Shown piece by piece: positions 41 through 57,602 of a stretch of DNA of 64,000 nucleotides (position 1 is the first letter of the stretch; every line of letters starts with the position of its first letter). Below the pieces are notes generated by a model, which had not been told where the DNA came from, did not search any database, and worked only from the letters and a program-made list of their open reading frames with translations. The translations under genes and the position numbers were made by a program. Location: contig JACPTB010000006.1 of NCBI GenBank assembly GCA_016192995.1, forward strand, positions 5,687-69,686, written 5' to 3'. The DNA comes from Candidatus Woesearchaeota archaeon (lineage in GTDB: Archaea; Nanobdellota; Nanobdellia; Woesearchaeales; DSVV01).

Positions 41-3000
41 ATGTTCGAAGATACGTCAAAACTAAACTCATTGTCTAAATATTCATATCTTTTAATTTTA
101 TTAATACTGATAATGATAAGTGTCTTTCTTAGAATATTACCAACGTTCTTTTTAGGTGAAGAAGAGAAAGCTGAACAATATATTCATCTTCAGTTAAAAG
201 AGAAGATAACTCAACAAGTTAAGCTCCAATATCCACAACTCTCTCGTGAAAAGCAAAGTGCCTTCGTTGAACGAGAGGTACGTAATTATCTCAGGGATAA
301 TGCTGAAAAAATAAAGCAGTTGGTTAAAACTCAAGCTTTAGTAAACAAAGCAAAATTTCAAGATCCTTCTGGTCAAACATATCTGTTTGCAATAGATCCA
401 TGGCATTGGTATAGATTGGTTAAGAACTATCTTGATCATGGTTATGAAGGCGATGTAGAGAAAAAGGGGAGATATTATGATACCTATATCTATGCAAATC
501 TTCCTGATTTTTTCCGACCATCAGGCACAAGTAAAGTTAATAGTTTTCATGTATTCATAACAAGTATATTGTATAAAATAATTCACCTTTTGAATAAGGA
601 TATAAGTTTACTAGCGGTTTTATTTTATCTGTCGGTGTTCTTTAGTGCGCTTGCAGTAGTGCCTGCATTTTTCATAGGAAGAAAGTTTGGAGGCGCAATA
701 GGTGGTTTCTTCGCCGGTTTAATAGTAGCATTTCATAAAATAATATTACATAGAACCATGGTTGGTCTTTACGACACTGATGCTTATACAATATTATTTC
801 CTTTGATAATAATCTGGTTTTTTATTGAAGCATACCAGGGCTCTTTGACGAAGAGATTATTATTGATCCTAGCATCTGGTTTCTTAATGGGCGTTTATAG
901 TTTTGCATGGATTGGTTGGTGGTATACATTCTATCTAGTATTTTTTGGATTTATGTTAATTATGGTCTATAAATATATGAACAGTATAAAGCTAAAATTA
1001 ACACAATTCAGGGAATTTTTAAACGTCAGTGATATCTTTGGTGATATCTTTACTGGTTTTAAAAAAATTAAATTTGAAATGCTGTTGTCGCTAGTTTTTA
1101 TAAGCTCTTCAGCATTATTTGTTTTTCTTTTCAAAGGTTTTGAAGGATTAAAAGCAGGATTTCTTGGACCATTTGGTTTTTTGACTATCAAAGAGATATC
1201 TGCAGAAAACCTCTGGCCAAATATATTTTCAACAGTAGATGAATTTCAAACCGTAAATCTCATCGAGTTAATTAATGGCATTGATGGCCAGCTCTTTTTT
1301 TTCTTAGCTCTGGTTGGTTTTTTATTATTAAGTTATAATATTAAAAACATTAAAAGTATAACTTTGCTCGGAGGTTTAGGGTGGATAATGTTTTGGATGT
1401 TTGCGATTAAATATATTCTTAAAAAAGGTTTAGCTAATCTTTTTTTTATAATCCCCCTAGTGATTCTTTTATACGTTATGTATAAAAAAGAATATTTAAA
1501 AGAAGAGCATGATCCTCATTATAACCCCTATTTGAATGATTTTATACTGTTATGGCTCATGTTATATTTAGGGGTCGTCATCTTTTTAACCTATCTTTTT
1601 ACAAATATTATTTTCTTTTTAGCATTATTAGGACTTCCGTTTATATATATCTATCTCGTGAAAATAATTAAGGAAAGCGGTAGTGACTATGAAACTACCT
1701 TTGAGCCCTGTTTTGCCATGTTTTTTTTGTTATGGTTATTTATTACTATGTATTCAAGTACGCTTGGAAATCGGTTTGTTTTATTAGTTATTCCTCCTTT
1801 TGCATATGGATTCAGTTTTTGTATCAGCTATCTTATAGAAATGATTACACCAGCACTTAGTTCAGCGCTCTATCTCACAAAAACAGTAGTCAAAATCATA
1901 ATGGTCATATTTTTTATTGCTCTTTTGACGCCACCTCTGATAAGTGCTTACACCCTGGTAAAATCTGCCACACCTGCGGTTACAGATACATGGTATGATA
2001 GTCTTACCTATATCAAAGAGAACTCGGCAAAAAATGCAGTTATTATTTCATGGTGGGATTTTGGGCATTGGTTTAAAGCAATCGCTGATAGGCCAGTGGC
2101 TATAGATGGTGGTACACAAAGTGCTCAGCAAATTGTGTACATTGGAAAACTTTTGTTGACTTCAGATGAAAAAGAAAGCGCAGCCATTTTACGAGTATTA
2201 AGTTGCGCTTCATATGGAGCTTTTGAAACAATGAAAATCTTTTTCAAGTACGATGAAATCAAAACTCGTGATGTTCTGGAACAAATAATGATGCTGCCTA
2301 AGGATCAGGCGACAGAAGTTCTTAAAACAGAAGGATTCGCCCAAGACAAAGTAGAACAGATCTTGGACTATACTCATTGTAAGCCGCCGCAAACTTTTCT
2401 TATCCTTAGTTATGACATGATATTTAAGACGTTTGTTTGGGCTCAAGTAGGTTCATGGGATATAAAACGTGCGCAAATATTACAATATGCTAACAAAAAC
2501 AAACAAACTGAAGCAATAGCTTTTATGGAAACAAGCATGAATATGACTGAAGAGCAGGCGCAAACATCCTATGCAGAACTAAAAAAAATAAAAAATGCTG
2601 AAGAAAAAAATAAATGGGTCTCGCCGCAACTAAGATATCATGGCGTTGATACTTACTGTGAGAAAAAGAATGAAGCTGTTGTTTGTAAAAATAAAATTAT
2701 ACTTAACCTAACAACAGGAGAAGTCTATATTCAAGACGGTGATAAAAAATTCTATGCTTCCTATGCATCATATCTCAATCAAAATAATTCTGAATTTACC
2801 ATATTTAAATCCCAAGTAAATGATACAGATCTCAAACTTAACAAACTTAATGCAAGTGAATCTGGCATATCAATTTTCAAAGGAGCTGATAACAAGTATT
2901 CTCTCGCAGTTATGGACAATCAATTAGTAGGGAGCATGTTCAATAGGTTGTATTTCTACAATGGTACAGGATTAAAATGCTTTAAATTATTTCATGAAGC

Positions 3001-3064
3001 TCAAATACCTGCGAGTAACGAGAAACTCTCAATATGGGAAGTTAACTGGAGCTGTTTGGAATAA
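41..3064 (+). CDS. aglB: Oligosaccharyltransferase AglB/STT3, paralogue 1 (full length)
   Basis: 1007-aa ORF that is multi-TM. Motifs seen: EL1 DPWHWY, second acidic motif GLYDTDAY, TVDEF (TIXE-like), and a C-terminal domain with the WWDYG-type motif ISWWDFGHWF. Confidence 0.9.
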   Translation: MFEDTSKLNSLSKYSYLLILLILIMISVFLRILPTFFLGEEEKAEQYIHLQLKEKITQQVKLQYPQLSREKQSAFVEREVRNYLRDNAEKIKQLVKTQALVNKAKFQDPSGQTYLFAIDPWHWYRLVKNYLDHGYEGDVEKKGRYYDTYIYANLPDFFRPSGTSKVNSFHVFITSILYKIIHLLNKDISLLAVLFYLSVFFSALAVVPAFFIGRKFGGAIGGFFAGLIVAFHKIILHRTMVGLYDTDAYTILFPLIIIWFFIEAYQGSLTKRLLLILASGFLMGVYSFAWIGWWYTFYLVFFGFMLIMVYKYMNSIKLKLTQFREFLNVSDIFGDIFTGFKKIKFEMLLSLVFISSSALFVFLFKGFEGLKAGFLGPFGFLTIKEISAENLWPNIFSTVDEFQTVNLIELINGIDGQLFFFLALVGFLLLSYNIKNIKSITLLGGLGWIMFWMFAIKYILKKGLANLFFIIPLVILLYVMYKKEYLKEEHDPHYNPYLNDFILLWLMLYLGVVIFLTYLFTNIIFFLALLGLPFIYIYLVKIIKESGSDYETTFEPCFAMFFLLWLFITMYSSTLGNRFVLLVIPPFAYGFSFCISYLIEMITPALSSALYLTKTVVKIIMVIFFIALLTPPLISAYTLVKSATPAVTDTWYDSLTYIKENSAKNAVIISWWDFGHWFKAIADRPVAIDGGTQSAQQIVYIGKLLLTSDEKESAAILRVLSCASYGAFETMKIFFKYDEIKTRDVLEQIMMLPKDQATEVLKTEGFAQDKVEQILDYTHCKPPQTFLILSYDMIFKTFVWAQVGSWDIKRAQILQYANKNKQTEAIAFMETSMNMTEEQAQTSYAELKKIKNAEEKNKWVSPQLRYHGVDTYCEKKNEAVVCKNKIILNLTTGEVYIQDGDKKFYASYASYLNQNNSEFTIFKSQVNDTDLKLNKLNASESGISIFKGADNKYSLAVMDNQLVGSMFNRLYFYNGTGLKCFKLFHEAQIPASNEKLSIWEVNWSCLE

Positions 3065-3240: not shown

Positions 3241-6200
3241 TTATTGCATTCCAAGATGTTCCAAAGCAATCAATGCATCCTTCTTGACTGCGGTTGTAAG
3301 CTTTTTTCCAAGTAATTCTTGTATCTTTCTTGGATCAGTAATGCCTTTAAAATCTGCTCTTTTCATATCAATATCTTGTTCTGTCAAAATATGCCCGGCA
3401 GATAAATCATTAGTATAAATCAAGCTTTTTTGCGCCACTTTTTTCACATCTAACTCACTTTGATGAAATGTTTTTCGATAGTTGCCAGGAGCAACTTCTG
3501 CTTGTCTTTTCTCTTCTGGAGTGATGAGGAGTTGGGCAAGTTTTTCAGGTGTTTGGTGCAAGATTTTTGCGCCTTGTAAAATTCTTCGTAATTCGTCTGG
3601 TTCAGCAGAAAATCTATGGTCGGGTCCTTTGTCAAATTTATTTAAGGTAAAATGTTTCTCTATAACTGAAGCTCCCAAAGTCACAGCTTTTAAAGGTACA
3701 GCTACACCAGGAGTATGATCTGAAAAACCAGTTGGTATATGATAGGTATCATGAAGATATTTCATCGCATTAAGATTTACCATTTCTGCGGTTGTAGGAT
3801 AAGCACTGACACAGTGAAGGAGAATTAATTGTTTATTTCCCGCAGCATAAATTGATTCAACAGCTCCATGGATTTCTAGATCATTCGAATACCCAGTTGA
3901 TAAGATAATTGGTTTTCCTTTCCTTGCGACATAGGACAAAAAAGGATAGTTGGTTAGATCATCAGATCCAATCTTATAAGCATCAACGCCAATTCTTTCA
4001 AGGATTTCAACGCTTTCCTTATCTCCTCCTGGCGTAGAAATAAAGATAAGCCCTTTTGCTTCAGCATATGCTTTGAGTTCAACAAAATCTTTTTCAGTTA
4101 ATTCATACCTCTTAAACATATCATATTGTTTTTCAGTAATTTTTGTTCCATCGGCTAGTTCATAGCTATATTCAAGATTTTTATCAGAAATAAATGCTTC
4201 TGTTTTAAATGTTTGAAATTTAATGCACTCGGCTCCTAAAGCAGCTGCAGTATCAATCATTTTTTTTGCTTGCTGAACGCTTCCATTATGGTTTAAGGTT
4301 GTTTCAGGTATAATAAAACATGGTTCGCCTGGTCCAATTCTTCTTTTACCGATATAAATATGCTGTGGCATAATATCACCTTCTTTAGTCCTTGACATTT
4401 TTTCTAGTTCACTGATAACTTCTTTGATGCATGCTACTACTTGTCTAACATCTTTAACGTCCATAGTTGGAAATAAAGGCAGTGTTATAATTCGAGCAAA
4501 GATGTCTTCAGTATGAGGATAATTAAGGGGATTAACAAGTTCAGTGCTGTAAAATTTTTCTTTATAATACGTGAAGTGATAGATGGGCGTATAATGGACA
4601 TTGACCCCTATATTTCTCTCGCGCATTTTTTTGAAAAAAAGATCTCGATCTAAAAAAGGATATTTTCTAGTATTAAGAAATATGGTAAATAGATGCCATG
4701 CATGTTTGATAGTATCGGAATAGTTGGGTGTATTTATTTGAGGCACATCTTTGAAAAGTTGTTGATATTCATGTGCTAACTCAGTCCTCTTTTTAATAAA
4801 TAATTCTAATTTATTAAGTTGTGAAATTCCCAATGCTGCCTGAAAATCAGTAATGCGATAATTTCTTCCTAAAGCAACATGGTCGTACTGCCAGGAAGAA
4901 TCTTTACTGCATCGTTCGCGTGTCTCTTTAGTAATACCATGATTTCTCAGAATTTTTAATTGTTTATGCCATTGTTCATTGTTAGTGGTTATAGCGCCGC
5001 CTTCACCAGTAGTAATATGTTTAACAGGGTGAAAGCTGAATATCGTCAAATCAGCAGCGGTTCCTACGTTTCTCTTTCCTAAGTTGTCGTAAGATGCGCC
5101 CAAAGCATGTGCAGCATCTTCAACTAAATAAAGATTATATTTTCGCGCAATTTCTTTGAGCTGATCAAAAGCAGCAGGATAACCTGCAAAATCAACATAG
5201 AGTATGGCTTTTGTGTTTGGAGTTATTTTCGCTTCAATTTTATTGACGTCAATAGTTAATGTTTCTGGAGAGATGTCTACAAATACAGGTTTGCATTTGT
5301 TATAAATAATGCTATTTGCTGTTGCAACAAAAGTAAAGGGCGTTGTTATAATCTCAGAATCTTCAGGCAAATCAAGAGCTTGGAGGGCTAATTCAAGCGC
5401 AGCTGTTCCAGAATTAACAGCTACTGCATAAGTACATCCAATAGTAGAACACAACGCTTTTTCGAATTCCTCAATTTTTGGTCCAGTTGTTATCCATGAT
5501 GATCGTAAAACTTCAGTAACTGCTGTTATGTCATCTTCTTCAATACAATGACGACCATAGGGTAAGAGTGAGGTAAATCGAGTGTAAGAAGAGGAAGGGC
5601 TCTTTTGATTTCTATCGTTTATATTTAATTCCATACAACTTTGATCTTTAATCCATGCTTCAGTTTTTTTAATACCATCTGTTAATGATGTTTTTGGTTC
5701 CCAATTAAGAAGAGTATGTGCTTTGGTATAGTTGCAAACAAGTTTCATGATTTCAGCTTGGGGGTGATGATGAGGAATATGTTTTATTTTTGATGGAACT
5801 GGTTCAATGGAAGCTGCAAGTTCATTAATCCTTATATCCTTGCCAGTACCTGCGTTTAATATTTGTCCAACAGCTTTTTGTGAAAAAGCAGCTTTTACAA
5901 TAAACTCAGCACAGTCTTCAACATAGAGTAAATCCCTTGTTTGTTCGCCGCTGCCAAAAATATTAAGGTCATGTCCTCGGACATGACTGCTAATAAAAAT
6001 GCTTACAACTCCTCCTTCAAGATTTGTTTTTTGAAATGGACCATAGGTATTGAATGGTCGTAAAATAACAACGGGCAATCCTAATCCATAATAATAAGAT
6101 AATGCTAGTTGTTCTCCTGCTAATTTAGTTCCTGCATATGGCGAGGCAGGTTTTACAGGATGTTCCTCAGTAATGCCTTTACCTATCTCTTCAGGAGCAA

Positions 6201-6597
6201 CAGTGTCATACACCATGCAGGTGCTGATAAAAACAAACGTAGTTTTTTGTTTCATGCAACCTTCTAATAAATTATACGTTCCAAGGATATTGCTATTAAA
6301 ACTCTTTTTGGTGTTATCCAAACTATTTTGCACTTCTATTTGCGCAGCTAAATGAATGCAAACATCAAAATTATTTTCGAATAATTTTGATGTTTGTTTA
6401 TAATCAACAATATCTCCTTGAATTAAACCTTTGAAAAGGGAGTGATTATTAAATTCAGCGAGGTTTTCAGCAGAGCTATTGCTCAGATTATCAATAACCC
6501 AAACAGTATGATTTTCTTGAAGCAGCTTTTTAACTACAGCTCTTCCAATAAATCCAGCTCCGCCAGTTACAAGCACATTCATATACTGAAGGAACAA
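3241..6597 (-). CDS. Tri-domain fusion: extended SDR epimerase/dehydratase + DegT/PseC-type PLP aminotransferase + NeuB/PseI/LegI-type nonulosonate synthase with SAF domain
   Basis: Uninterrupted 1118-aa ORF. Residues ~6-330 carry GGAGFIG and YAGTK. Residues ~345-735 carry LPYGRHCIEEDD and SFHPVKHITTGEGG. Residues ~750-1118 carry KFQTFK, GFSDHTPG and EKHFTL..GPDH, with a SAF-like C-terminus. An alternative start (M6) lies at 6582. Confidence 0.85.
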   Translation of the reverse strand: MFLQYMNVLVTGGAGFIGRAVVKKLLQENHTVWVIDNLSNSSAENLAEFNNHSLFKGLIQGDIVDYKQTSKLFENNFDVCIHLAAQIEVQNSLDNTKKSFNSNILGTYNLLEGCMKQKTTFVFISTCMVYDTVAPEEIGKGITEEHPVKPASPYAGTKLAGEQLALSYYYGLGLPVVILRPFNTYGPFQKTNLEGGVVSIFISSHVRGHDLNIFGSGEQTRDLLYVEDCAEFIVKAAFSQKAVGQILNAGTGKDIRINELAASIEPVPSKIKHIPHHHPQAEIMKLVCNYTKAHTLLNWEPKTSLTDGIKKTEAWIKDQSCMELNINDRNQKSPSSSYTRFTSLLPYGRHCIEEDDITAVTEVLRSSWITTGPKIEEFEKALCSTIGCTYAVAVNSGTAALELALQALDLPEDSEIITTPFTFVATANSIIYNKCKPVFVDISPETLTIDVNKIEAKITPNTKAILYVDFAGYPAAFDQLKEIARKYNLYLVEDAAHALGASYDNLGKRNVGTAADLTIFSFHPVKHITTGEGGAITTNNEQWHKQLKILRNHGITKETRERCSKDSSWQYDHVALGRNYRITDFQAALGISQLNKLELFIKKRTELAHEYQQLFKDVPQINTPNYSDTIKHAWHLFTIFLNTRKYPFLDRDLFFKKMRERNIGVNVHYTPIYHFTYYKEKFYSTELVNPLNYPHTEDIFARIITLPLFPTMDVKDVRQVVACIKEVISELEKMSRTKEGDIMPQHIYIGKRRIGPGEPCFIIPETTLNHNGSVQQAKKMIDTAAALGAECIKFQTFKTEAFISDKNLEYSYELADGTKITEKQYDMFKRYELTEKDFVELKAYAEAKGLIFISTPGGDKESVEILERIGVDAYKIGSDDLTNYPFLSYVARKGKPIILSTGYSNDLEIHGAVESIYAAGNKQLILLHCVSAYPTTAEMVNLNAMKYLHDTYHIPTGFSDHTPGVAVPLKAVTLGASVIEKHFTLNKFDKGPDHRFSAEPDELRRILQGAKILHQTPEKLAQLLITPEEKRQAEVAPGNYRKTFHQSELDVKKVAQKSLIYTNDLSAGHILTEQDIDMKRADFKGITDPRKIQELLGKKLTTAVKKDALIALEHLGMQ

Positions 6598-6626
6598 GAA
6601 ACTATTCTTAAATCTTTCTTAATCAT

Positions 6627-6868
6627 GTACGTAATAAGTCTGGGGTTTTAGCGCCTACTTTTGTGAAGCTCCTCGATATCTTTATTAGGGATTTTTCGGG
6701 GTTCCTTGCCGATAGGCAAGTCTTATAATCCCAGACGCAAGCCAACTTATGAATCCTTGATTTATATTATTGAGGGAGTCGGGATTATATTTATAGAGAG
6801 AAAAATCCAATTGATGTACGCTTCCAAAGCTGAACCGGCGCTAAAACCATAGAGGACTTATTACGTAC
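6627..6868 (+). mobile_element. Palindromic MITE-like element, copy B (GTACGTAATAAGTCT termini) carrying a nested 89-nt insertion
   Basis: Termini, second stem GGTTTTAGCGCC/GGCGCTAAAACC and apical stem GGATTTTTC/GAAAAATCC match copies D, F and G. The conserved loop is split between ..GGTTCC and AGAGAG... It abuts the stop codon of the gene at 6869. Confidence 0.8.
6706..6794 (+). other. Structured 89-nt insert inside the apical loop of copy B
   Basis: Absent from D, F and G at the homologous position. It contains hairpin TTGCC-GATA-GGCAA and the imperfect stem ATAATCCCAGAC / GTCGGGATTAT. Confidence 0.65.
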
Positions 6869-7912
6869 TCAAGTAAGGTACTGTTCAAAATGAGATTCTG
6901 AAAGAAGCGTATCAATTTCAAGTTTAGTTAAAGGTATTTCATCAGCAGAATCGTATCCTTTAACATGGGCTTTTTTTAGGTTTAAAGAAGATGAAACTAG
7001 TTGTTGTTGAAACAAAACAATCTCAGGAGGTATAATAAACAGATCATCAAACTCATAAGCGCGCTCTGCTTCCTGCTCAGTCATGAGTTCTTCGCTCATA
7101 GTTTCTCCAGGTTTAAGCCCAATGATATTAATTTGAATCTTTTTCGGATCATAATGGTAATAATTTGCAAATTTTTCTACAAAAACCTCACCAAAATCTT
7201 TTATCTTAACAACAGGCATTTTAAACACAAAAATTTCACCGCCTTGCATAATACTTAAACATTTAAACAAAAGGGTAACTGCTTTTTCTGGCGACATAAA
7301 AAATCGCGTCATAGCTGGATCAGTAATAGTAAGAGGTCCGCCTTTTGCAAGCTGTTTTTTAAATAAAGGTCCTACTGATCCTCTGCTCCAGAGGATATTC
7401 CCAAACCTTACTGAGGAAAAAATAGTTTTTTTGCTGCCTTTGTAATGATTTGCAGCAATAATCAGGCGTTCAGCAAGAAGCTTTGTTGCACCCATAGTAT
7501 TATTAGGATTAACTGCTTTATCACTGCTGGTGTAAATAACCCTGCTAACACCTGTTTCAAGTGCAGTATTAATAACATTTTGTGTGCCAATAATATTTGT
7601 TTTAACAGCTTCAAAAGGATTGTATTCACAGGCTAAAACATGTTTTAATGCAGCGAGATGGAAGACCACATCAATATTTTCCATAGCAGTTTTTAATCGC
7701 TCTCTATCGCGGATATCACCTAATAAATACCTCAATTTATCACTGTTAAAATCCTGCTGCATCTCAAACTGTTCAGTTTCATCAATATCCAGAATTCGAA
7801 TTACTTTTGGATTAAATTGAAGGAGTTCTGTAATAAGAGGTCTTGCCAGTGATCCTGTGCCTCCGGTAATGAGTATGTTTTTATCTTGGACTAAATTATC
7901 AATAACAACCAC
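6869..7912 (-). CDS. UDP-N-acetylglucosamine 4,6-dehydratase, CapD/FlaA1/PseB-like
   Basis: 347 aa. Motifs seen: NILITGGTGS, LGDIRDRERL, HLAALKHV..EYNP, SSDKAVNPNNTMGATK, VRFGNILWSRGSV and MTRFFMS. Confidence 0.85.
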   Translation of the reverse strand: MVVIDNLVQDKNILITGGTGSLARPLITELLQFNPKVIRILDIDETEQFEMQQDFNSDKLRYLLGDIRDRERLKTAMENIDVVFHLAALKHVLACEYNPFEAVKTNIIGTQNVINTALETGVSRVIYTSSDKAVNPNNTMGATKLLAERLIIAANHYKGSKKTIFSSVRFGNILWSRGSVGPLFKKQLAKGGPLTITDPAMTRFFMSPEKAVTLLFKCLSIMQGGEIFVFKMPVVKIKDFGEVFVEKFANYYHYDPKKIQINIIGLKPGETMSEELMTEQEAERAYEFDDLFIIPPEIVLFQQQLVSSSLNLKKAHVKGYDSADEIPLTKLEIDTLLSESHFEQYLT

Positions 7913-7982: not shown

Positions 7983-8146
7983 GGCGATATTGAAAAGCTT
8001 ATGTTGCCATCAATATCGCGAAGCTTATCACCTAAAAATATTGAGTACTTTTCGGAGTGCCAGAGAGAAAAGTACTATCTATAAACTACGCCAAAGCTGA
8101 GCCGATGGCAACCTTTGCTTTGCAAAGAGAGCTTTTCAATATCGCC
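7983..8146 (+). mobile_element. Palindromic MITE-like element, copy C (GGCGATATTGAAAAGCT termini)
   Basis: Outer stem is GGCGATATTGAAAAGCT / AGCTTTTCAATATCGCC. Second stem is GTTGCCATC / GATGGCAAC. Apical hairpin is GTACTTTTC-GGAGTGCCAGAGA-GAAAAGTAC. A perfect 8-bp direct repeat CAACAAGT flanks it at 7975-7982 and 8147-8154. Confidence 0.85.
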
Positions 8147-9797
8147 CAACAAGTTGAAGAACTCTATCAGCAACTTTTCCATCAATCTTATATACTTGTT
8201 TTTTAAGGAATTCTTGGGTATTTTTCTTAAGTTCTTGCTGGATATCTTTGCCATATAAAATGGCAAAGATATTCCGAGTAAGATTCTGTTTTTTTTCAGT
8301 AACCACTACAGCATTGCTGGCAATGTATCCTTGATCACGAATGTTTGAAGAAAAACAAATTAATACTACGGGTACACCAAACATAATTGCTTCTAAAACA
8401 ATAGTAGAGCTTTCTGCAATAAGGGCGTCAGTGATCGCAAAGAGTTCGTAGATAGGGGTATCTTTAATAAAAATAACATCATCTAAATTTTGTTGATGAG
8501 CAAGCTTTCGATACCATGCTTCATGAGGATCTCGCGGATGTAATTTTACTACCAACCTAAGTTGCTTTTTATCTTGATTTTGTGTTTGCGCTACAGCAGC
8601 AACACTTTTAAAGAGTTCCGTTGCAAGATCATAAGTTTTCCATGGTTCTTTATCAATGCTTGTTGCATAAACAACAACTTTTTCTTCAGGATTGATGCCT
8701 AAACGCTGTTTAAGTTCCTGACTTTTATTTTTCTTTTGCATGCTGTTTTTTATAATAACAAGGTTATCACTTGCTAATTGTCCAACGATATGAATCTTCT
8801 CTTGAGGAAAAGAGCCTTGTTTTACAAGAAACTGTTTGGTATGTTCACCATAAACTGCAATAAGATCAGCAAGTGGATAATGATCAGCAATATCTTTTTG
8901 GGTATGAACATAATCCAGATCGTATCCTATCAGTCCTTCTTGAATTTCAAGGACAGGAATACCTAACCTTTTTGCAGCAACAATCACAGACTTTCCTGGT
9001 GTTGTATTCCCTGACATGGTGACAACAATTTTTGGTTTTGTTGCTTTGAGCATTTCTTTGCTTAACAGAATATACGTGATTGCTTCAGGTAAAATTTTAG
9101 AAAACATAAGTTGAAATTTCTTATATAACGAGGTGTACAAATCAAGCTCTTTTCCCTTAAATCTTGTTTGGAGCGCTTTCTTAAACTCAGGGCTTGTTAA
9201 GATTTTTTTTCCAAGAGCGGCATATTTCTTTTTCTCTTGAGAAACTTTTCTCATTATTTCTATTGAATAAAATTTTTCAATAGGATTAGTATCAGAATAC
9301 ATTGAAGTTTGCAGTTTTGTTTTTCCTCCCCATGAAGCTAAATCGTCGTAATAAAAAACAAAGAGTTTTTTATGCTGCTGACGAATTTTTTCAATAAGCG
9401 GTCCGATTCTTATGTTATTGGCTGCTACACAGTATGAGGGATGTGTTGTAACAACAATAGTATCCTCTTGATTATTAAGGTCAAGAGAATGTTGAGGAAT
9501 AATATATTTTCTTACAACAAACCGGGCTTGTTCAAGATGGTTAAGCAGAAAAGTATAGAGTAGTGAGAAAATATTCTTTTCTGGCAAAGGTTCTCCTTTG
9601 AAAATACCTTTCAATGAAGGATAATGGTAAAAAGAAGCATCTGCTAACCATCGTTCAGCAAACCACCATAGTGATGTTTGTTCATATGTTAATAATTGTT
9701 TTATATTTTTACCGTCAAGGATAGTTTTATCTGCAAACTCTTTTAAAAAAATCATTTCAGGATAATCTTGATTAATAGTGGTGTTATTTTTTTCCAT
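8136..9797 (-). CDS. GT-B-fold protein of uncertain function (TagF / epimerase_2 / PseG-like C-terminal half)
   Basis: 553 aa. The C-terminal pattern is KLHPRDP ... ESSTIVLEAIMFGVPVV. It lies next to nonulosonate genes. Its last 3 codons plus the stop are encoded by element C. Confidence 0.4.
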   Translation of the reverse strand: MEKNNTTINQDYPEMIFLKEFADKTILDGKNIKQLLTYEQTSLWWFAERWLADASFYHYPSLKGIFKGEPLPEKNIFSLLYTFLLNHLEQARFVVRKYIIPQHSLDLNNQEDTIVVTTHPSYCVAANNIRIGPLIEKIRQQHKKLFVFYYDDLASWGGKTKLQTSMYSDTNPIEKFYSIEIMRKVSQEKKKYAALGKKILTSPEFKKALQTRFKGKELDLYTSLYKKFQLMFSKILPEAITYILLSKEMLKATKPKIVVTMSGNTTPGKSVIVAAKRLGIPVLEIQEGLIGYDLDYVHTQKDIADHYPLADLIAVYGEHTKQFLVKQGSFPQEKIHIVGQLASDNLVIIKNSMQKKNKSQELKQRLGINPEEKVVVYATSIDKEPWKTYDLATELFKSVAAVAQTQNQDKKQLRLVVKLHPRDPHEAWYRKLAHQQNLDDVIFIKDTPIYELFAITDALIAESSTIVLEAIMFGVPVVLICFSSNIRDQGYIASNAVVVTEKKQNLTRNIFAILYGKDIQQELKKNTQEFLKKQVYKIDGKVADRVLQLVGRY

Positions 9798-11286
9798 AGT
9801 GAAAACCTAATGAGTTGAACAGCGATGTAATTTCATGAAGAGTGATAATTTTACTGGCAAACAATAAGAGCAGGTATAACAATAGTGAAATAAATGAAGA
9901 GACAAGAATGCTCATATAAATATTAGCGCTGAAAATGTTTCTCAAGAGCGCTAATGAGGCATAAAATATTCCTGAAATAAAAATAAGTTTAATCCAGTTC
10001 CAAAAAGGATTCTGGAACTGAAGTGTTTTTCTCAAAAAATAATACGCTAAAATAAACATGCAAAGATAGCTTATTGATGTAGCGAGCGCGGCTCCTCCTG
10101 TTGAAAATTGAGGAATAAGAAGAGCATTAAGGATAAGATTAATGAAACCAGAACTGATAATAACAACAGCATCGTATTTTGGTTTTCCTATAGCAACCAG
10201 CGTTGTGGTGTACATAAGCGCTAAGGAGAGAGCAATATTTCCAAAGAGCAGAATTCTCAAAGGCATGGTTGCTGGAAGATATTCTTGTTTAAACAGAACA
10301 GTTATAATGACAGGAGCAAATTCAAAAATAAGAAGTGAAAGCGGCAAAAGAAGAAGCGGTACATATTTATTAAATAAATATATTCCACTAAGGAGTTTTT
10401 CTTTTTCGTTTTTTGTCCATAATTCAGAAATAGTTGGGAAGAAAACATATCGTAGTGACATGCCAATATAACCAATCAGTGCTGCGGTCGGAAACGCAAC
10501 ATTATAAACAGCAGCTTCTTTAACTCCTTGCAAATAGGTCAAAAATATAGTATCAATATAATTAGCAAAAATTCCTCCAAAAATAGTCATCGTAGCGGGA
10601 AGTGAAAAGTAGATCAGTTCTTTGACAAAAGGTTTTGTAAGGCTATACTTAACTTGGAATAAATCAGGGAATACTAATTTCCAAAAAATGTAGGCATAGA
10701 TAATTAAGACTACCAAAAAAGAAAAAATGTACCCGAGTACCGGCGAAAAAATATTATTGAAAAATATAAAGAAAATAAAGGTAGTCACCCATAACAAAAT
10801 TATTTTTGTTAATTCAATGCTTGAAAAGAACCCAATCTTTTGAAAGCCAAGAAATGTTTGCCTGAGCAATAACACTCCTGATGAAAAAACAAAAGAAATG
10901 CTTAATCCAATAATCACCAGTTTTGCAGTTTCATCTTTAAAATAAGAAGTGCTAAGAAAAGGTGCAAGTAAGAAGAAAACAATAACGCTGATCAGCGCAA
11001 CAATGAGAATAATGCTTCCTACAAATATAATGCTTGCCTTGACCAGGTCTTTTCGTTTTTCAACAAGATATTGAGGGATATATTTTACCATGGTCCGCGA
11101 AAAACCTAGATCAACAAATCCCATAAAAAACCCTAAAAACGCAAAAACACTGTAAAACAGCCCAAATTCAGTTATAGATAGATTTCTGCTGAGGTAAATC
11201 CGATAGCCATAGGTAAGAAACGCAACAACAATAGAGGTAATAAAAGTAATAGAAAATCCCTTGATAATATGCTTTAAATAACCCAT
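9784..11286 (-). CDS. Wzx-like polysaccharide flippase (MOP superfamily)
   Basis: 500 aa with about 14 hydrophobic segments. It sits within the glycan cluster and overlaps the downstream gene by 14 nt. Confidence 0.75.
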   Translation of the reverse strand: MGYLKHIIKGFSITFITSIVVAFLTYGYRIYLSRNLSITEFGLFYSVFAFLGFFMGFVDLGFSRTMVKYIPQYLVEKRKDLVKASIIFVGSIILIVALISVIVFFLLAPFLSTSYFKDETAKLVIIGLSISFVFSSGVLLLRQTFLGFQKIGFFSSIELTKIILLWVTTFIFFIFFNNIFSPVLGYIFSFLVVLIIYAYIFWKLVFPDLFQVKYSLTKPFVKELIYFSLPATMTIFGGIFANYIDTIFLTYLQGVKEAAVYNVAFPTAALIGYIGMSLRYVFFPTISELWTKNEKEKLLSGIYLFNKYVPLLLLPLSLLIFEFAPVIITVLFKQEYLPATMPLRILLFGNIALSLALMYTTTLVAIGKPKYDAVVIISSGFINLILNALLIPQFSTGGAALATSISYLCMFILAYYFLRKTLQFQNPFWNWIKLIFISGIFYASLALLRNIFSANIYMSILVSSFISLLLYLLLLFASKIITLHEITSLFNSLGFHYGKK

Positions 11287-45259: not shown

Positions 45260-46351
45260 ATGTTCAAAGTTGTTACTGTTGTAGGAACAAGGCCAAATTT
45301 CAATAAAGAAATGCTGATACACAAGTATCTTATAGATGCAGGAATAACGGAAATTATCATTCACACGGGTCAGCATTACGATATTGAAATGAGTAAAGTA
45401 TTTTTTCAAGATTGTGATTTACCTGAACCAGATTATAATTTAGAAGTTGGGTCTTTAAGTCATGCAAAACAAACAGGACTTATGATGGAGAAAATAGAAG
45501 AAATTCTCCTCAAAGAAAAGCCAGACCTAGTCGTAGTGTATGGTGATGTTAACTCAACTATGGCTACAGCATTAGCAGCAGCAAAATTGCGAATCCCTAT
45601 TGCTCATATTGAGGCTGGGCCGCGAAATAAAATGCAATACATGCCTGAAGAAATTAATAGGGTGGTTACTGATAGAATTTCAACCTTATTATTTGCTCCA
45701 ACAAAAGAGGCATACAATAACCTGCTGAAGGAAAACTATGCTCGTGAAAATATTTTTTTTACTGGTGATATTCTCAAAGATAATCTCTTGTATATTATGA
45801 AAAAACACCATATTGAATGTATACCTTCTGCTAAAAGTACGTATCTTCTTGCTACAGTCCATAGATGTGAAAATACTGATGTTCGAGAAAATATTCAGGA
45901 AATCATAGAGGGGTTTATAGATTCCAAAGAAAAGATTATCTTCCCTCTTCACCCAAGAACAAAGAAACAATTAGAGCGCTTTGGTCTCTTTGAAAAATTG
46001 AAACAAACGCCAAACATAGAACTAAAACCTCCGTTAGGCTATGTTGAATTTGTAAAATATTTAGCTGGCTCAAGAAAAGTACTGACAGATTCCGGCGGTG
46101 TTAGGAGAGAAGCATATATGTTAGGCAAGCCCGTGATCACAGTTATTAGTGAAGACGGTGAGTGGTGGCCTGAAATTGTTACTGCAGGCTGGAATAAAAT
46201 TACTGGTCCAAATAAAAAGAACATCATTGATGCTATCAAACATTTTGACCCAACATCATTGCCACAGCCAGAAATTTTCGGTGATGGAACTGCGGCAAGA
46301 AAGATTGTTAACATTATTATTGATTTTCTCAAAAACCATGGTAAAAAATAA
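45260..46351 (+). CDS. wecB: UDP-N-acetylglucosamine 2-epimerase (non-hydrolysing type)
   Basis: 363 aa. Motifs seen: VVTVVGTRPNFNK, HTGQHYD, VYGDVNST, HIEAG and PEEINR. Confidence 0.85.
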   Translation: MFKVVTVVGTRPNFNKEMLIHKYLIDAGITEIIIHTGQHYDIEMSKVFFQDCDLPEPDYNLEVGSLSHAKQTGLMMEKIEEILLKEKPDLVVVYGDVNSTMATALAAAKLRIPIAHIEAGPRNKMQYMPEEINRVVTDRISTLLFAPTKEAYNNLLKENYARENIFFTGDILKDNLLYIMKKHHIECIPSAKSTYLLATVHRCENTDVRENIQEIIEGFIDSKEKIIFPLHPRTKKQLERFGLFEKLKQTPNIELKPPLGYVEFVKYLAGSRKVLTDSGGVRREAYMLGKPVITVISEDGEWWPEIVTAGWNKITGPNKKNIIDAIKHFDPTSLPQPEIFGDGTAARKIVNIIIDFLKNHGKK

Positions 46352-47126
46352 TCAACTTGAATCTGAAAATAATCAGTATGATACTAAAGCAGAATTTATA
46401 AAAAAATCTAGGCATAATCACGACTGGGATTATCTTTGGAAAAAGACAAGAAAACAGATGCAGTATTCTATAAAAAAAGCAAATTATATGAGTCAAAGAA
46501 TGGTAAAAGAAATTAAAAAACATACTCTACTAAATAATAAAGACTGTTTTGAAATCGGTTCAGGTTCTGGAAGATTATCATGGATGTTATTAAAAGCAGA
46601 TGTGCGATCAGTAACCTTGCTTGACACCTCAAAAGAGGCATTAGAAATTGCTAAGACTTTATTTACCGAAAAAGAAAAAGAAACTAAAGTTTCTTTTTTG
46701 CAAAAAAGTATTTTTGAATTTCCCACACATAAAAAATACGATATCGTGGTAAGCGGCGCTACCATTCAGCATTTTAAAGAGGAAGATGTGCAGTTGATCT
46801 TAAAAAAGCATCTTGATCTGACCAGAAAAGGGGGTGTTTGTTGTATAATCTTTCCTTCAAGCAATTATTTTAATGTTCAGCGCGAGAAAACAGAAAGCAA
46901 TCGAAAACTCTATGGCTGGTTTGATACGCAATTAGAAAAAAAAATACATACTCTTATGCCGATACAACAATATGTTCATTACCGCTTTGATTTCTTTTAT
47001 GGAAAGCCAAAATTCATATTATATCTCCATCGAATTATCTTTTATCTTTTTGGTATAGATTTAAATGTAGCATGCTTAGAAAAACGTTTTGGTGGGCTTG
47101 TTTTCTTGGCATTTAAAAAATCATAA
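46338..47126 (+). CDS. Class I SAM-dependent methyltransferase
   Basis: Motifs seen: CFEIGSGSGRLS and a later GGVCCIIFP. The start at MVKNNQ overlaps the wecB stop by 14 nt. Confidence 0.65.
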   Translation: MVKNNQLESENNQYDTKAEFIKKSRHNHDWDYLWKKTRKQMQYSIKKANYMSQRMVKEIKKHTLLNNKDCFEIGSGSGRLSWMLLKADVRSVTLLDTSKEALEIAKTLFTEKEKETKVSFLQKSIFEFPTHKKYDIVVSGATIQHFKEEDVQLILKKHLDLTRKGGVCCIIFPSSNYFNVQREKTESNRKLYGWFDTQLEKKIHTLMPIQQYVHYRFDFFYGKPKFILYLHRIIFYLFGIDLNVACLEKRFGGLVFLAFKKS

Positions 47127-48031
47127 AGCTCTCCTAAAGTGCAAAACCACGTATTTCTTTTCTTACCTTCAAGAAGTAGTTTCTCATATAACTCAAAATA
47201 TCCCGGATAATCCTTTTTACTAAACGCAGTATTATGCCAAATAATGACCAAAGGTAAACTTTCCTGTTCAGCGAGGTCATAAAGTGCAATAATTTTCTTC
47301 CAAAGTTCTTCGGTGGCAATAAGGTGTTGAGGAAGAGCAGAATCCATTAATGCAATCGGGAAAACCATAAATCTATCGCCTTCTTTGGAAAATGGTTTAA
47401 ACGGAGTTTTATGCTGAAGCTCTTTAAAACCAATTCCTCTTGTTAAACCAAAACTGCTGTCATACTGAAAACCTGCTTTTTTCTGCAATTCCCATGTTTT
47501 TTCAAAATCAAAGTTCAAATAATGTTGTCGAATCCCTTTAATCTTATGTCCAACAATGCGTTCTAAGAGTTGTTTTTGAGCGGTAAGCAACTTAATTTGA
47601 TCATAAGAATGGTAAGATCCATGAACGCCAATTTCCCATCCCTCAGCATCAAGTTTTTGAATAAGCTCGGTTATTTTTTTTTGTTGAATATTATATCTTC
47701 CTACAAACAACATTATATCTCTTAACGACAAAGGGAATTTTCGTTGTTCTTGAAGGAAGAAAAACGTTGATTTAATATTATGGAACTTTTCAAGTTCCAT
47801 AATGGTATCAAAAGTCCAATAAGGATTATGGAAATAAGAACTTAGATGATACCATGCATTCTTGAAATTAAAGTTATATAACTCTTTTAAAAAATAATAG
47901 GGGCATTGGTAAGTTTTTTTAGTTCGATCAATATCATGGGTTAGACAAACAGCAAATCTGCTTTTTCCTGGGTACTGTAGTTGTTGTTTCATAAGTTTAA
48001 GCATCGAGCTTTTTATAGAGCAATTCAACAT
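47042..48031 (-). CDS. Polysaccharide deacetylase (CE4 / NodB-homology)
   Basis: 329 aa. Motifs seen: CLTHDIDR, GVHGSYHS and RQHY. Its 3' end overlaps the convergent methyltransferase gene by 85 nt. Confidence 0.65.
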   Translation of the reverse strand: MLNCSIKSSMLKLMKQQLQYPGKSRFAVCLTHDIDRTKKTYQCPYYFLKELYNFNFKNAWYHLSSYFHNPYWTFDTIMELEKFHNIKSTFFFLQEQRKFPLSLRDIMLFVGRYNIQQKKITELIQKLDAEGWEIGVHGSYHSYDQIKLLTAQKQLLERIVGHKIKGIRQHYLNFDFEKTWELQKKAGFQYDSSFGLTRGIGFKELQHKTPFKPFSKEGDRFMVFPIALMDSALPQHLIATEELWKKIIALYDLAEQESLPLVIIWHNTAFSKKDYPGYFELYEKLLLEGKKRNTWFCTLGELYDFLNAKKTSPPKRFSKHATFKSIPKR

Positions 48032-49205
48032 TTTTCATTTGTGAATCCCAATTATATGTTTTCTCTACTAATAATCGTGATTTTTCTCCAATAGCTGTAA
48101 GTTTTTTTCTATCAGTTGCTAAAACAGTGATAGCGTCAGCTATTTCTTGAGCTGAGCCAGGAGTAACAGTACATCCTAATTGATTATGTTCAACAACACT
48201 GCGCATTCCAGGAAGGTTACTGATGATTAAAGCGCATGCTCCAGCCATATACTCAAACAGCTTATTTGGGCTGCAAAATTCATTGTTTCGAGTAAGATAT
48301 TGAACATGAAGACCTATGTCTGCTAAAGCTGAATAAGTAGGAACTTCATCATAAGGAATCTTGCCAATAATATGAACATTTTTCGCATTTTGGTCTTGAG
48401 CAAAAGCAACTAATCGTTGATAATAGGGGCCATCACCTACAATGAAAAAAACAACGTTGTCTCGAAGCGCAGCAGGGAGAAGCTTCGAGGCAATAACAAT
48501 CTCTTTCACACCGCGTATTTCTTTAATGATCCCACAATACATCGCAACAATGGTGTCTTGTTTAATACCATACTTTTTCTTCAGAAAAGATATTTTCTTA
48601 TGATTCTTATAAGTATCGAACCAGGTGAGATCAATATAATTAGCTGCTACAACAACTGGCTTGCCAAATCGTTCCAATTTCTGAGCAAATTCTTTGTTGA
48701 TGGTAATAATACCATTAACAAAGTAGCTGCATATTTTCTCAAGAAACAAGCCAGGTAGCCATAATAAAATAGACATGTCTCTCAAAAGATTAGGGTAATC
48801 TTCATGCGAATCATAAATTAACGTTTTTCGTTTGAACCATTTCAATATAACTCCTAAGGGGAGTGCTGTTAAATCATGAGCATGAATGATATCACATGGC
48901 TTTTTTAATGCATAAAAAAAAGCATGAGCCATAAATCCAATAATGCTATACAACACCGAGATTATTTTTAGAAAAATATTTCTTTTTTCAAAGTTTTGTA
49001 TCAAGGCAGGACCAAGATGAACTACCTTAAAATGTTTATACTCCTCTTGGGGATAATCTCCTCTATACTTCCACGCTATAATTTCAATATCATAGCCTTT
49101 TCTTGCAAGGTAATTAGCTTCTTTAAGAACTCTTGGATCAGGAGCAAAGTCTTTCAAGAGAAGCATCAAAATCTTTTTCTTTTTTTCTTTTTGTTGCGGT
49201 ATCAT
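47997..49205 (-). CDS. GT4-family glycosyltransferase
   Basis: 402 aa with typical GT-B halves. Motif seen: SPNKLFEYMAGACALIISN. Confidence 0.8.
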   Translation of the reverse strand: MIPQQKEKKKKILMLLLKDFAPDPRVLKEANYLARKGYDIEIIAWKYRGDYPQEEYKHFKVVHLGPALIQNFEKRNIFLKIISVLYSIIGFMAHAFFYALKKPCDIIHAHDLTALPLGVILKWFKRKTLIYDSHEDYPNLLRDMSILLWLPGLFLEKICSYFVNGIITINKEFAQKLERFGKPVVVAANYIDLTWFDTYKNHKKISFLKKKYGIKQDTIVAMYCGIIKEIRGVKEIVIASKLLPAALRDNVVFFIVGDGPYYQRLVAFAQDQNAKNVHIIGKIPYDEVPTYSALADIGLHVQYLTRNNEFCSPNKLFEYMAGACALIISNLPGMRSVVEHNQLGCTVTPGSAQEIADAITVLATDRKKLTAIGEKSRLLVEKTYNWDSQMKNVELLYKKLDA

Positions 49206-49211
49206 GATGGA

Positions 49212-50336
49212 TTATAGCTGAGCTTCTAAAACTTCCTTAACATTCGAAATAATATACTCTTGTTGAGCAGATGATAATTCTGGATAAATTGGCAGTGAGA
49301 GAATTTCATCAGCGATTTTTTCGCTTATAGGATAACTTCCTTTTTTTAATCCTAAACAAGAAAATGCAGGCTGGAGGTGGAGAGGAATGGGAAAATATAT
49401 CTGTGTAGGAATTCCTCTTTTTTCAAGCTCAGACATAACTGCTGATCTCTGTTTTACACGAACAGTATAGACGTAATATACAGGTTTCGCATGAGCTTCT
49501 TCATAAGGTAATATTATCTTTCCCTGGCTAGAAATATCTTTAAACGCTGCAGTATAACGTTGGGCAAGAGTTCTTCTTTTCTCGTTGACAAACTCCAATG
49601 CTTTTAATTTAACTCGAAGCACAGCTGCTTGCAAACTATCCATTCGTTCGTTATACCCTAAATAATTATGTTCGTATTTTTGTCCTGGCAATCTCCCATG
49701 GTTGCGAAGAGCAATAAGCATATTTTTAATGTTGCTATTATTAAATACAATAGCTCCTCCATCGCCAAAACAACCAAGATTTTTTGCAGGATAAAAAGAA
49801 AAGCAGCCTATATCTCCTTGAGGTACCTTCTTATCATGATACATGCATCCATGAGCCTGAGCGCAGTCTTCAATAACAAATAAATTATGTTTTCGAGCAA
49901 TCTCAATGATCTTATCCACAGCACAAGGATAACCATACAAATGTACGGCAATAATTGCTTTTGTTTTTTTTGTTATAGCTGCTTCAAGTTTTGATGAATC
50001 TATGTTGTAGGTTTTTTGGTCAATATCAACGAGCTTAATGCTTGCTCCGCTATGGATAATCACTTCCCCTGTTGCGATAAACGTATGCGGTGTTGTAATA
50101 ACCTCATCGCCTTCTTTAATGTCAAGAACTTTTAATGCTAAAAAAAGAGCGCTTGTTCCAGAGTTAGTACTTACACAATATTTGCTTTCACAATAATCAG
50201 CAAATTCTTGTTCAAACAAAGAAACATCTTTGCCATTGACAAAATCAGTTTGTTCTATTACCTGGGCAAGCGCAGCATCTATTGCTTCTTTCTGGCTGAT
50301 ATATGATGCTTTCAAATCAACAAAAGGGATTTTCAT
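49212..50336 (-). CDS. DegT/DnrJ/EryC1/StrS-family sugar aminotransferase
   Basis: 374 aa. Motifs seen: NSGTSALFLAL, FSFYPAKNLGCFGDGGA and NSRLD-like YNERMDSLQAAVL. Confidence 0.9.
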   Translation of the reverse strand: MKIPFVDLKASYISQKEAIDAALAQVIEQTDFVNGKDVSLFEQEFADYCESKYCVSTNSGTSALFLALKVLDIKEGDEVITTPHTFIATGEVIIHSGASIKLVDIDQKTYNIDSSKLEAAITKKTKAIIAVHLYGYPCAVDKIIEIARKHNLFVIEDCAQAHGCMYHDKKVPQGDIGCFSFYPAKNLGCFGDGGAIVFNNSNIKNMLIALRNHGRLPGQKYEHNYLGYNERMDSLQAAVLRVKLKALEFVNEKRRTLAQRYTAAFKDISSQGKIILPYEEAHAKPVYYVYTVRVKQRSAVMSELEKRGIPTQIYFPIPLHLQPAFSCLGLKKGSYPISEKIADEILSLPIYPELSSAQQEYIISNVKEVLEAQL

Positions 50337-50356
50337 GTCCTCGCCTCTTTTTCTCC

Positions 50357-57521: not shown

Positions 57522-57576
57522 AATGATAACACCTTCTTTCAGCAATTGGCATATAGTTTCCTTTATAAAAGTTGCC

Positions 57577-57602
57577 AAAACCTAAGAAGACTTATTACGT
57601 AC
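57577..57602 (+). mobile_element. Solo right-end fragment of the GTACG-type element
   Basis: AAAACCTAAGAAGACTTATTACGTAC matches the right terminus of D, F and G (AAAACCATAGAAGACTTATTACGTAC). No left half is present. Confidence 0.7.

Follow-up and report, generated by a model that had tools for sequence, protein, structure and literature searches.

Nonulosonic acid pathways and the Woesearchaeota locus

In Bacillus thuringiensis, cytidine monophosphate (CMP)-pseudaminic acid is made by seven enzymes, Pen, Pal, Pam, Pdi, Phy, Ppa and Pcp (Li et al. 2015; structures 6BWC and 6BWL). According to PMC5109656 and PMC7439481, which both refer to Li et al. 2015, the single enzyme PseB is here replaced by a pair of enzymes. 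Pen is a uridine diphosphate (UDP)-N-acetylglucosamine (GlcNAc) 4-oxidase/5,6-dehydratase/4-reductase and Pal is a UDP-6-deoxy-GlcNAc-5,6-ene 4-oxidase/5,6-reductase/5-epimerase. On the B. thuringiensis plasmid the genes are ordered pen-pal-pseC-cytidylyltransferase-pseG-pseH-pseI, with pal and pseC abutting. Here, we describe a gene of a Candidatus Woesearchaeota archaeon (DPANN) in which Pal, a PseC-type aminotransferase and a NeuB-family synthase are joined in one open frame. The gene lies in a stretch of 64,000 nucleotides of contig JACPTB010000006.1 (the window). It is predicted to encode a trifunctional nonulosonic acid pathway enzyme, the product of which is probably pseudaminic acid (Pse) or an N-acyl or N-formyl derivative. 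By domain assignment, the fused modules correspond to steps 2, 3 and 6 of the seven-enzyme Pen/Pal route.

The locus shares with B. thuringiensis the replacement of single-enzyme PseB by a Pen-like enzyme and Pal (identities: Pal 59%, measured against the Pal genes of Bacillus megaplasmids, Pen 48% and PseC 44%), and both systems include an SpsF-like cytidylyltransferase and a PseG-like hydrolase. The two differ in that Pal, aminotransferase and synthase form one polypeptide in the archaeon, while cytidylyltransferase, hydrolase and an aldo-keto reductase (AKR) form another. Moreover, the archaeal synthase is not of the PseI type by its hidden Markov model score, no PseH acetyltransferase of the GCN5-related (GNAT) type was found in the genome, the Pen-like enzyme carries Mx3K instead of Yx3K, and the cluster, in an archaeal host, flanks the oligosaccharyltransferase gene aglB. 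The canonical Helicobacter/Campylobacter route (PseB-PseC-PseH-PseG-PseI-PseF) leads from UDP-GlcNAc to a CMP-5,7-diacetamido nonulosonate, as is predicted here, and the PseC equivalog model is matched above its cut-off. However, two enzymes would do the work of PseB at the present locus, the PseI, PseF and PseB scores are below their cut-offs, and all six canonical proteins are separate. The legionaminic acid (Leg) pathway encoded by sps in Bacillus subtilis (SpsM, SpsC, SpsD, SpsG, SpsE plus SpsF; PMC7439481) resembles the locus in the Mx3K dyad of the first enzyme, in the SpsE-like synthase and SpsF-like cytidylyltransferase and in the presence of a PseG-like enzyme; it has no Pal and no fusions, and the aminotransferase of the archaeon scores as PseC.

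An archaeal counterpart is found on a plasmid of Halorussus aquaticus (NZ_CP100401.1, pipeline annotation only), where a pal, a DegT and a NeuB-family gene stand in a row in the order of the fused domains. A divergent Pen-like gene beside pal also has Mx3K (L022:6741-7757), and PseG-like, SpsF-like and sialyltransferase-family genes are nearby. There, however, the three genes are separate (a 4-nt overlap, then a 46-nt gap; identities 51%, 36% and 34%) and a GNAT acetyltransferase is present. Three metagenome proteins of ~700-740 aa (P0008, P0009 and P0010) resemble the first two domains in the same order (41-49% identity) and keep the Pal motif CMVY (STCMVY in two of the three), and one of them is named PseC transaminase by JGI; they lack the synthase domain. 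In genomes of the same family (G019, G009 and G006), pathway enzymes are likewise joined, but with other partners and in another domain order, and none of these fusions includes Pal or PseC.

The enzyme families, the Pen/Pal route and Pal-PseC bifusions, which are common in metagenomes, were thus known already. What is new is the three-domain architecture, of which two instances are known, its occurrence together with a second three-domain protein, and its location in an N-glycosylation island of a DPANN archaeon. These are known parts rearranged and not new chemistry; the mechanism is unsurprising, and existing knowledge of the chemistry of the individual enzymes is unchanged. The non-canonical pathway suggested in a first-pass annotation of the window is borne out in one respect: the route is the Pen/Pal variant in place of single-enzyme PseB, a variant that had been described. 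That annotation had also left room for the architecture being common and already annotated, which is the case for the Pal-PseC part but not for the triple fusion.

The locus would extend the Bacillus-type Pen/Pal route to sialic-acid-like sugars into DPANN archaea. In a full-text literature search, DPANN and pseudaminic acid came up together in a single paper, with one mention of each, and nonulosonic acids are seldom documented in archaeal N-glycans (PMC6137143); the position of the cluster beside aglB provides a testable prediction on Woesearchaeota surface glycans. For biocatalysis, a single-chain Pal-PseC-synthase with a PseF-PseG partner would be a compact start for the enzymatic synthesis of pseudaminic-acid-type sugars. 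Repeated Pal-PseC junctions, together with the many alternative fusions in the same family, amount to a natural experiment, on a small scale, into the reasons for which enzymes of sugar pathways become fused.

The three fused domains

An uninterrupted frame on the minus strand spans positions 3241 to 6597 of the window, and a Pfam run finds Epimerase, DegT_DnrJ_EryC1, NeuB and SAF in it, in agreement with the three domains of the first-pass annotation. All are full-length modules: Epimerase/GDP_Man_Dehyd at residues 8-312, DegT_DnrJ_EryC1 at 351-724 (404 bits), NeuB at 780-1014 (269 bits) and SAF at 1058-1112 (28.6 bits). The length of 1118 aa given earlier is the number of codons counted from a TTG. 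Translation likely starts five codons further on, at the ATG at position 6582 (followed by MNVLVTGGAGFIG), because an orthologue from another assembly, P0007, begins at the equivalent methionine; the protein would then be 1113 aa long. Cofactor-binding and conserved active-site motifs are kept in all three domains, and the GC content of the gene (0.34-0.37) is the same as that of its surroundings. An AlphaFold2 model of the full fusion protein, built on a 5-sequence alignment, was uninformative (mean predicted local distance difference test score 45, predicted template modelling score 0.40) and was not used.

Against all PDB sequences, domain 1 matches 6BWL, the Pal of B. thuringiensis, over the full length (residues 1-314, E 2.5e-121, 408 bits); the next match is a GalE with 156 bits. 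The motifs GGAGFIG, TCMVYD and YAxxK (YAGTK) are invariant in four Pal orthologues, i.e., the present one, that of B. thuringiensis, that of a haloarchaeon and that of a second DPANN genome. Cys-Met stands at the position of the Asp-Glu/Asp-Lys pair of sugar 4,6-dehydratases, the acid/base fingerprints of which are given in PMC8987622 (Table 1). Domain 1 has the features of the Pal class: the nicotinamide adenine dinucleotide (NAD)-binding GxxGxxG, the Ser/Thr-Tyr-Lys triad and the Cys-Met replacement. Of the earlier label, extended short-chain dehydrogenase/reductase (SDR) epimerase/dehydratase, the extended SDR part is therefore kept; judged by match and motif, the domain is an orthologue of B. 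thuringiensis Pal and not a generic epimerase/dehydratase. It is predicted to act as a UDP-6-deoxy-GlcNAc-5,6-ene 4-oxidase/5,6-reductase/5-epimerase that generates the UDP-linked 4-keto-6-deoxy derivative of N-acetyl-L-altrosamine (UDP-4-keto-6-deoxy-L-AltNAc).

Pal is rare in the phylum: with a threshold of E <= 1e-60 it was detected in two of 401 genomes. Besides the present one, there is a Pal in G358 (same order; L021:8392-11341), which is 60% identical and keeps TCMVYD. It is a stand-alone gene among three SDR genes, with Pen, PseC and NeuB not nearby, a context that suggests that Pal-type enzymes serve another pathway too.

Domain 2 scores 442.6 bits against the NCBIfam PseC equivalog (TIGR03588, cut-off 423.5), covering profile positions 2-379 of 380, and 250 bits against the LegC model (cut-off 420); the PseC/DegT-type assignment of the first-pass annotation is thereby upheld. 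The motif SFHPVKHITTGEGG with K526 is invariant in our alignment A1, and K526 would be the lysine that in the DegT/ArnB family forms the Schiff base with pyridoxal phosphate (PLP). In a maximum-likelihood tree of PseC domains, both triple fusions fall in one clade (support 100/98), the other members of which are stand-alone PseCs, including that of G006. The Pal-PseC bifusion P0008 falls outside this clade, and Pal-PseC junctions therefore arose more than once, independently.

Domain 3, annotated at first as a NeuB-family synthase with SAF, remains so. Its IIPETxxNH, SDHT and EKHFT segments align with Neisseria meningitidis NeuB (1XUU); these segments presumably carry the metal-binding His residues. 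By sequence and motifs it is an intact NeuB-family synthase with SAF. It is 36-39% identical to neuB-named and 33-35% identical to pseI-named plasmid genes (names from pipeline annotation), and scores (see below) and identities single out none of the Pse, Leg and neuraminic acid (Neu) subtypes.

Candidate genes for the remaining steps

The neighbouring gene upstream of the fusion, earlier described as PseB/CapD-like, does encode a Polysacc_synt_2 protein. This protein is closer to Pen (6BWC, 319 bits) than to Helicobacter pylori PseB (259 bits), and its PseB equivalog score is below the cut-off. SDK is present, while the catalytic Tyr is replaced by Met140 (NNTMGATK vs TNNYGATK in Pen), so that the [ST]DK...Yx3K fingerprint is not found. 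Mx3K is the dyad of retaining PglF/WbpM-type 4,6-dehydratases (PMC8987622), and SpsM has it likewise (PMC7439481). The Pen-like proteins that accompany Pal in archaea may constitute an Mx3K subgroup, and their product may be the 5,6-ene or a 4-keto-6-deoxy sugar.

Equivalents of PseF, PseG and PseH, which the first-pass annotation could not recognise, are absent from the window, but those of PseF and PseG lie just outside. A search for cytidylyltransferases in the whole genome gave a match just upstream of window position 1, divergent from aglB. The gene encodes a second fusion, of 922 aa, with CTP_transf_3 (residues 11-220), PseG-like (279-551) and Aldo_ket_red (623-901) domains. Six pathway domains are hence carried by two polypeptides, the genes of which flank aglB. 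Behind the 922-aa gene follow genes for a short-chain dehydrogenase, a second DegT aminotransferase, a hexapeptide-repeat (LbH) acyltransferase and a formyltransferase that is cut by the contig end. The hexapeptide acyltransferase (C16:513-983) is the sole candidate for N-acylation; the contig ends there and further genes may follow.

The second fusion recurs in two other assemblies (P0128 and P0129, 74% identity). A further protein, P0130 (645 aa, 60% identity), covers its first two-thirds and is without the AKR domain. Both P0130 and P0007 are from contigs of 14,227 nt, and they are therefore probably encoded on one contig.

The GT-B protein next to the Pen-like gene had been put forward as a possible stand-in for PseG or PseF. 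These domains lie outside the window, and the protein was rejected as PseG/NeuC since its Epimerase_2/NeuC matches are weak and a match to the BFO_1060 family is better. The sole Epimerase_2 gene in the window is of the non-hydrolysing WecB type, which makes a canonical N-acetylneuraminic acid or Leg route via a hydrolysing 2-epimerase unlikely.

Proposed pathway and its product

For the activities we infer the following scheme. The separate Pen-like enzyme would act on UDP-GlcNAc (step 1), the Pal domain would form UDP-4-keto-6-deoxy-L-AltNAc (step 2) and the PseC-type domain would aminate C4 at once (step 3). A separate acyltransferase would then acylate N4 (step 4); the upstream hexapeptide-repeat protein is proposed for this step because a PseH-type GNAT was not found. 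The PseG-like domain of the second fusion would remove UDP (step 5), whereupon the free 2,4-diacetamido-2,4,6-trideoxyhexose would return to domain 3 for condensation with phosphoenolpyruvate (step 6), and the cytidylyltransferase domain of the second fusion would give the CMP-sugar (step 7). Finally, the GT-B protein may add the sugar to a lipid-linked glycan that is flipped by the Wzx-type protein and transferred to protein by AglB.

In this scheme the fused enzymes are not three consecutive ones, as had been claimed; N-acetylation and UDP hydrolysis come between the aminotransferase and the synthase. The fusion is likely to be of benefit by fixing a 1:1:1 stoichiometry and by letting the aminotransferase trap the labile 4-keto sugar ahead of epimerisation. 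As SDRs, fold-type I aminotransferases and NeuB form dimers, attachment of the synthase is more likely to reflect co-stoichiometry or the assembly of a larger complex. Pen and Pal together yield both L-altro and D-gluco keto sugars in vitro (PMC7439481), and rapid capture by the PseC domain would therefore fix the configuration. The channelling of labile intermediates suggested by the first-pass annotation is plausible for the Pal-PseC pair only.

A Pse-configured product is rather likely. Pse is indicated by the Pal domain, by the score of domain 2 with the PseC equivalog and its place in the tree, by the PseG-like domain and by the lack of a hydrolysing 2-epimerase in the window, and the Pse cluster of B. 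thuringiensis also uses an SpsF-like cytidylyltransferase (27% identical). Several observations weigh against this assignment, or against the fusion as a channelling device. Domain 3 reaches 330.4 bits with NeuB_NnaB (cut-off 399.65) and 249.5 bits with PseI (TIGR03586, cut-off 340.25), and its identity to the PseI of B. thuringiensis is 31%. The cytidylyltransferase domain (CTP_transf_3, 86.5 bits in Pfam) is SpsF-like and scores 25 bits with the PseF equivalog, and the PseG-like domain, at 148.3 bits, is slightly under its cut-off of 153.55. The PseH-type GNAT (TIGR03585) has no match in the genome, which is 99.6% complete, and the dyad of the Pen-like enzyme is Mx3K and not the Yx3K of Pen. 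In addition, channelling cannot explain the whole fusion, because the synthase, acting three steps later, is not pathway-adjacent to the other two domains.

Some of these features raise the alternative that the same fusion serves a different product, Leg or a different isomer among the 5,7-diamino nonulosonates, in a route resembling that of B. subtilis sps and completed by the PseG-like enzyme, the SpsE-like synthase and the SpsF-like cytidylyltransferase. We consider this the less probable outcome by a wide margin. It would account for the higher score of the synthase with NeuB_NnaB than with PseI; SpsE (1VLI) ties for the best PDB match of domain 3. The acyltransferase candidate is of the hexapeptide-repeat type, as are PglD and LegH. 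Mx3K in the Pen-like enzyme would likewise fit, as it is the dyad of SpsM, PglF and WbpM (PMC7439481; PMC8987622), but Halorussus also pairs an Mx3K Pen-like gene with Pal. Moreover, an spsM mutant of B. subtilis regained Leg production when given Pen and Pal (PMC7439481), and an N-glycan with N-formyl-legionaminic acid is known in the archaeon Halorubrum (PMC6137143), a formyltransferase gene being part of the present cluster. Nevertheless, the aminotransferase passes the PseC cut-off and stays far under that of LegC, and its tree group includes the PseC from a canonical PseB-PseC-PseI cluster of the same family (G006). A bona fide Pal is present, for which the sps route has no use, and the SpsF-like character of the cytidylyltransferase is shared by the Pse cluster of B. 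thuringiensis. Collectively, these data favour Pse over Leg.

The unusual mix of Pse-type early enzymes, a Neu/Leg-like synthase, an AKR, a second aminotransferase and a formyltransferase might give a sugar that has not been described. In a more speculative and rather unlikely model, the Pal-PseC-synthase and PseF-PseG-AKR proteins assemble as a nonulosonate "megasynthase" that makes an undescribed isomer or derivative capping surface N-glycans. If so, the diversity of fusions among related genomes would be the outcome of selection for such complexes across the lineage.

It is improbable that the fusion is real but that one of its domains serves as a non-catalytic scaffold or has taken on another function, e.g., a Pal acting on a different nucleotide sugar, as the Pal of G358 may. 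That enzyme, the only other Pal in the 401 genomes of the phylum, has no adjacent Pen, PseC or NeuB, and the subtype of the synthase is not settled by scores; however, conserved motifs are kept in all three domains, and a domain identity of 76-90% between orthologues points to purifying selection on each. We therefore retain a trifunctional enzyme, with Pse or a derivative as its probable end product.

Occurrence and probable origin of the fusion

When 5.8 billion protein clusters were searched with a word index, a single further triple fusion came up: P0007, of 1109 aa and with 80% identity, from an independent assembly. Identity between the two proteins is 78% in Pal, 82% in PseC, 90% in NeuB and 76% in SAF. 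Linker 1 is 30% identical with an in-frame indel of 7 residues and linker 2 is 81% identical with an in-frame indel of 2 residues, and neither has stops. Conserved domains together with in-frame linker indels argue for a genuine multidomain protein under selection and not an assembly error. As far as the sequence comparisons go, the triple fusion is real and very rare. Loss of stops or frameshifts between three adjacent genes by assembly or sequencing error is highly improbable: the genome, from an uncultured organism, is assembled in 16 contigs and relatives have the genes separate, but the independent assembly encodes the same three-domain protein, the indels keep the frame, and the second fusion protein recurs in three other assemblies.

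An exhaustive phmmer search of 1.84 billion representatives gave no triple fusion among the best 150 matches; the cluster of the protein itself is also missing there, and the result is hence supporting and not proof. The top match, P0248, was considered as a PseC-NeuB fusion on the basis of two matched stretches and rejected, being a DegT-DegT tandem by Pfam. A scan of named genomes with the whole protein returned two stand-alone PseC loci only, and it did not return the genome of the window either. By its elongation factor aEF-2, which exceeds the equivalog cut-off, the genome is archaeal; the closest EF-2 sequences from named organisms (72-76% identical) all belong to Candidatus Woesearchaeota or Nanoarchaeota. 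Among 40 genomes of the same family or order, none has the fused form. In one genome of the family (G006), PseB-like, PseC (56% identical), PseI-like and cytidylyltransferase genes are separate and in a row.

Fusions of other kinds are found in the same family. The three genomes mentioned above (G019, G009 and G006) encode CTP_transf_3-NeuB-SAF-PIG-L (902 aa), Formyl_trans-Epimerase_2 (665 aa), CTP_transf_3-NeuB-SAF (579 aa) and CTP_transf_3-NeuB (634 aa), and an RmlD-DegT fusion (744 aa) also occurs in the family. In G019, the gene for CTP_transf_3-NeuB-SAF-PIG-L (L013:1774-4479) adjoins that for Formyl_trans_N-Epimerase_2 (L013:4506-6500), a pair that points to a Leg/Neu-type pathway with deacetylase and formyltransferase tailoring in this relative. 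Metagenomes hold further combinations: PseB-PseC, NeuB-cytidylyltransferase, NeuB-hexapeptide-SDR and Pal-class III aminotransferase. Because the gene order of the fused domains occurs unfused in a haloarchaeon, the triple fusion most likely originated by loss of the two stop codons between adjacent pal, pseC and neuB genes.

Two observations on PseC genes were made along the way. A PseC-like DegT aminotransferase in the representative library (P0267, 770 aa) is split by an intein (Intein_splicing and PT-HINT, ~residues 207-581). Two contigs in the PseC tree, JAXGTM010000012.1 (L003) and LNJE01000017.1 (L004), have identical gene order and near-identical PseC genes (tree branches 0 and 0.005), yet their labels differ, Atribacterota for one and Candidatus Methanofastidiosum for the other; one bin or the other has probably been assigned wrongly.

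Gene context in the window

The fusion gene is convergent with aglB, which is divergent from the gene for the second fusion (Table 1). The candidate CMP-nonulosonate transferase matches the BFO_1060 family with its C-terminal half (89 bits, cut-off 200) and TIGR04396 with 60 bits. BFO_1060 is a homologue of Tanf_01245, the transferase of a Pse derivative in Tannerella forsythia; Tannerella Pse/Leg transferases are described in PMC5420450.

Table 1. Features of the fusion gene and its surroundings. Positions are those of the window unless the genome contig is named.
Feature	Position	Strand	Evidence or remarks
Whole open frame, Pal-PseC-synthase fusion	3241..6597	-	1118 codons from TTG; stop 3241-3243
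Domain 1, Pal-type extended SDR, residues 6-317	5647..6582	-	PDB 6BWL match, motifs
Linker 1, residues 318-344, poorly conserved connector	5566..5646	-	Comparison with P0007
Domain 2, PseC/Pam-type PLP aminotransferase, residues 345-727	4417..5565	-	NCBIfam PseC equivalog, Pfam DegT
Linker 2 and synthase N-terminal extension, residues 728-759	4321..4416	-	Comparison with P0007
Domain 3, NeuB-family nonulosonate synthase, residues 760-1118 (TIM barrel 760-1014, SAF 1058-1112)	3244..4320	-	Pfam
PseF-PseG-AKR fusion, 922 aa	Genome contig C16:2866-5634 (locus L002:2866-5634)	-	CTP_transf_3, PseG, Aldo_ket_red
Pen-like Polysacc_synt_2 enzyme (P0002), predicted pathway step 1	6869..7912	-	PDB 6BWC best match
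Palindromic element resembling a miniature inverted-repeat transposable element (MITE)	6618..6877	.	Inverted arms 6618-6640/6855-6877 and 6639-6655/6837-6853
GT-B glycosyltransferase, candidate CMP-nonulosonate transferase	8136..9797	-	BFO_1060 family match
Wzx/MurJ-type oligosaccharide flippase	9784..11286	-	Pfam Polysacc_synt 93.9 bits, MurJ 44.6 bits
AglB/STT3 oligosaccharyltransferase	41..3064	+	Pfam STT3 117 bits, STT3-PglB_core

The MITE-like element takes up the gap that separates the fusion gene from the Pen-like gene, and its right arm overlaps the stop codon of the latter. Just past the left end of the element is a TATA-like TTTAAG, located ~24-30 nt upstream of the start codon at 6582.

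The window holds three STT3/AglB genes (the third at 54456-57578), Wzx and many glycosyltransferases, and the entire 64 kb is a glycosylation island. A separate sugar module at 45260-51340 encodes a non-hydrolysing UDP-GlcNAc 2-epimerase (above the WecB equivalog cut-off), a third DegT aminotransferase, methyltransferases, a UDP-GlcNAc 3-dehydrogenase-like Gfo/Idh/MocA enzyme and a second Wzx-like flippase.

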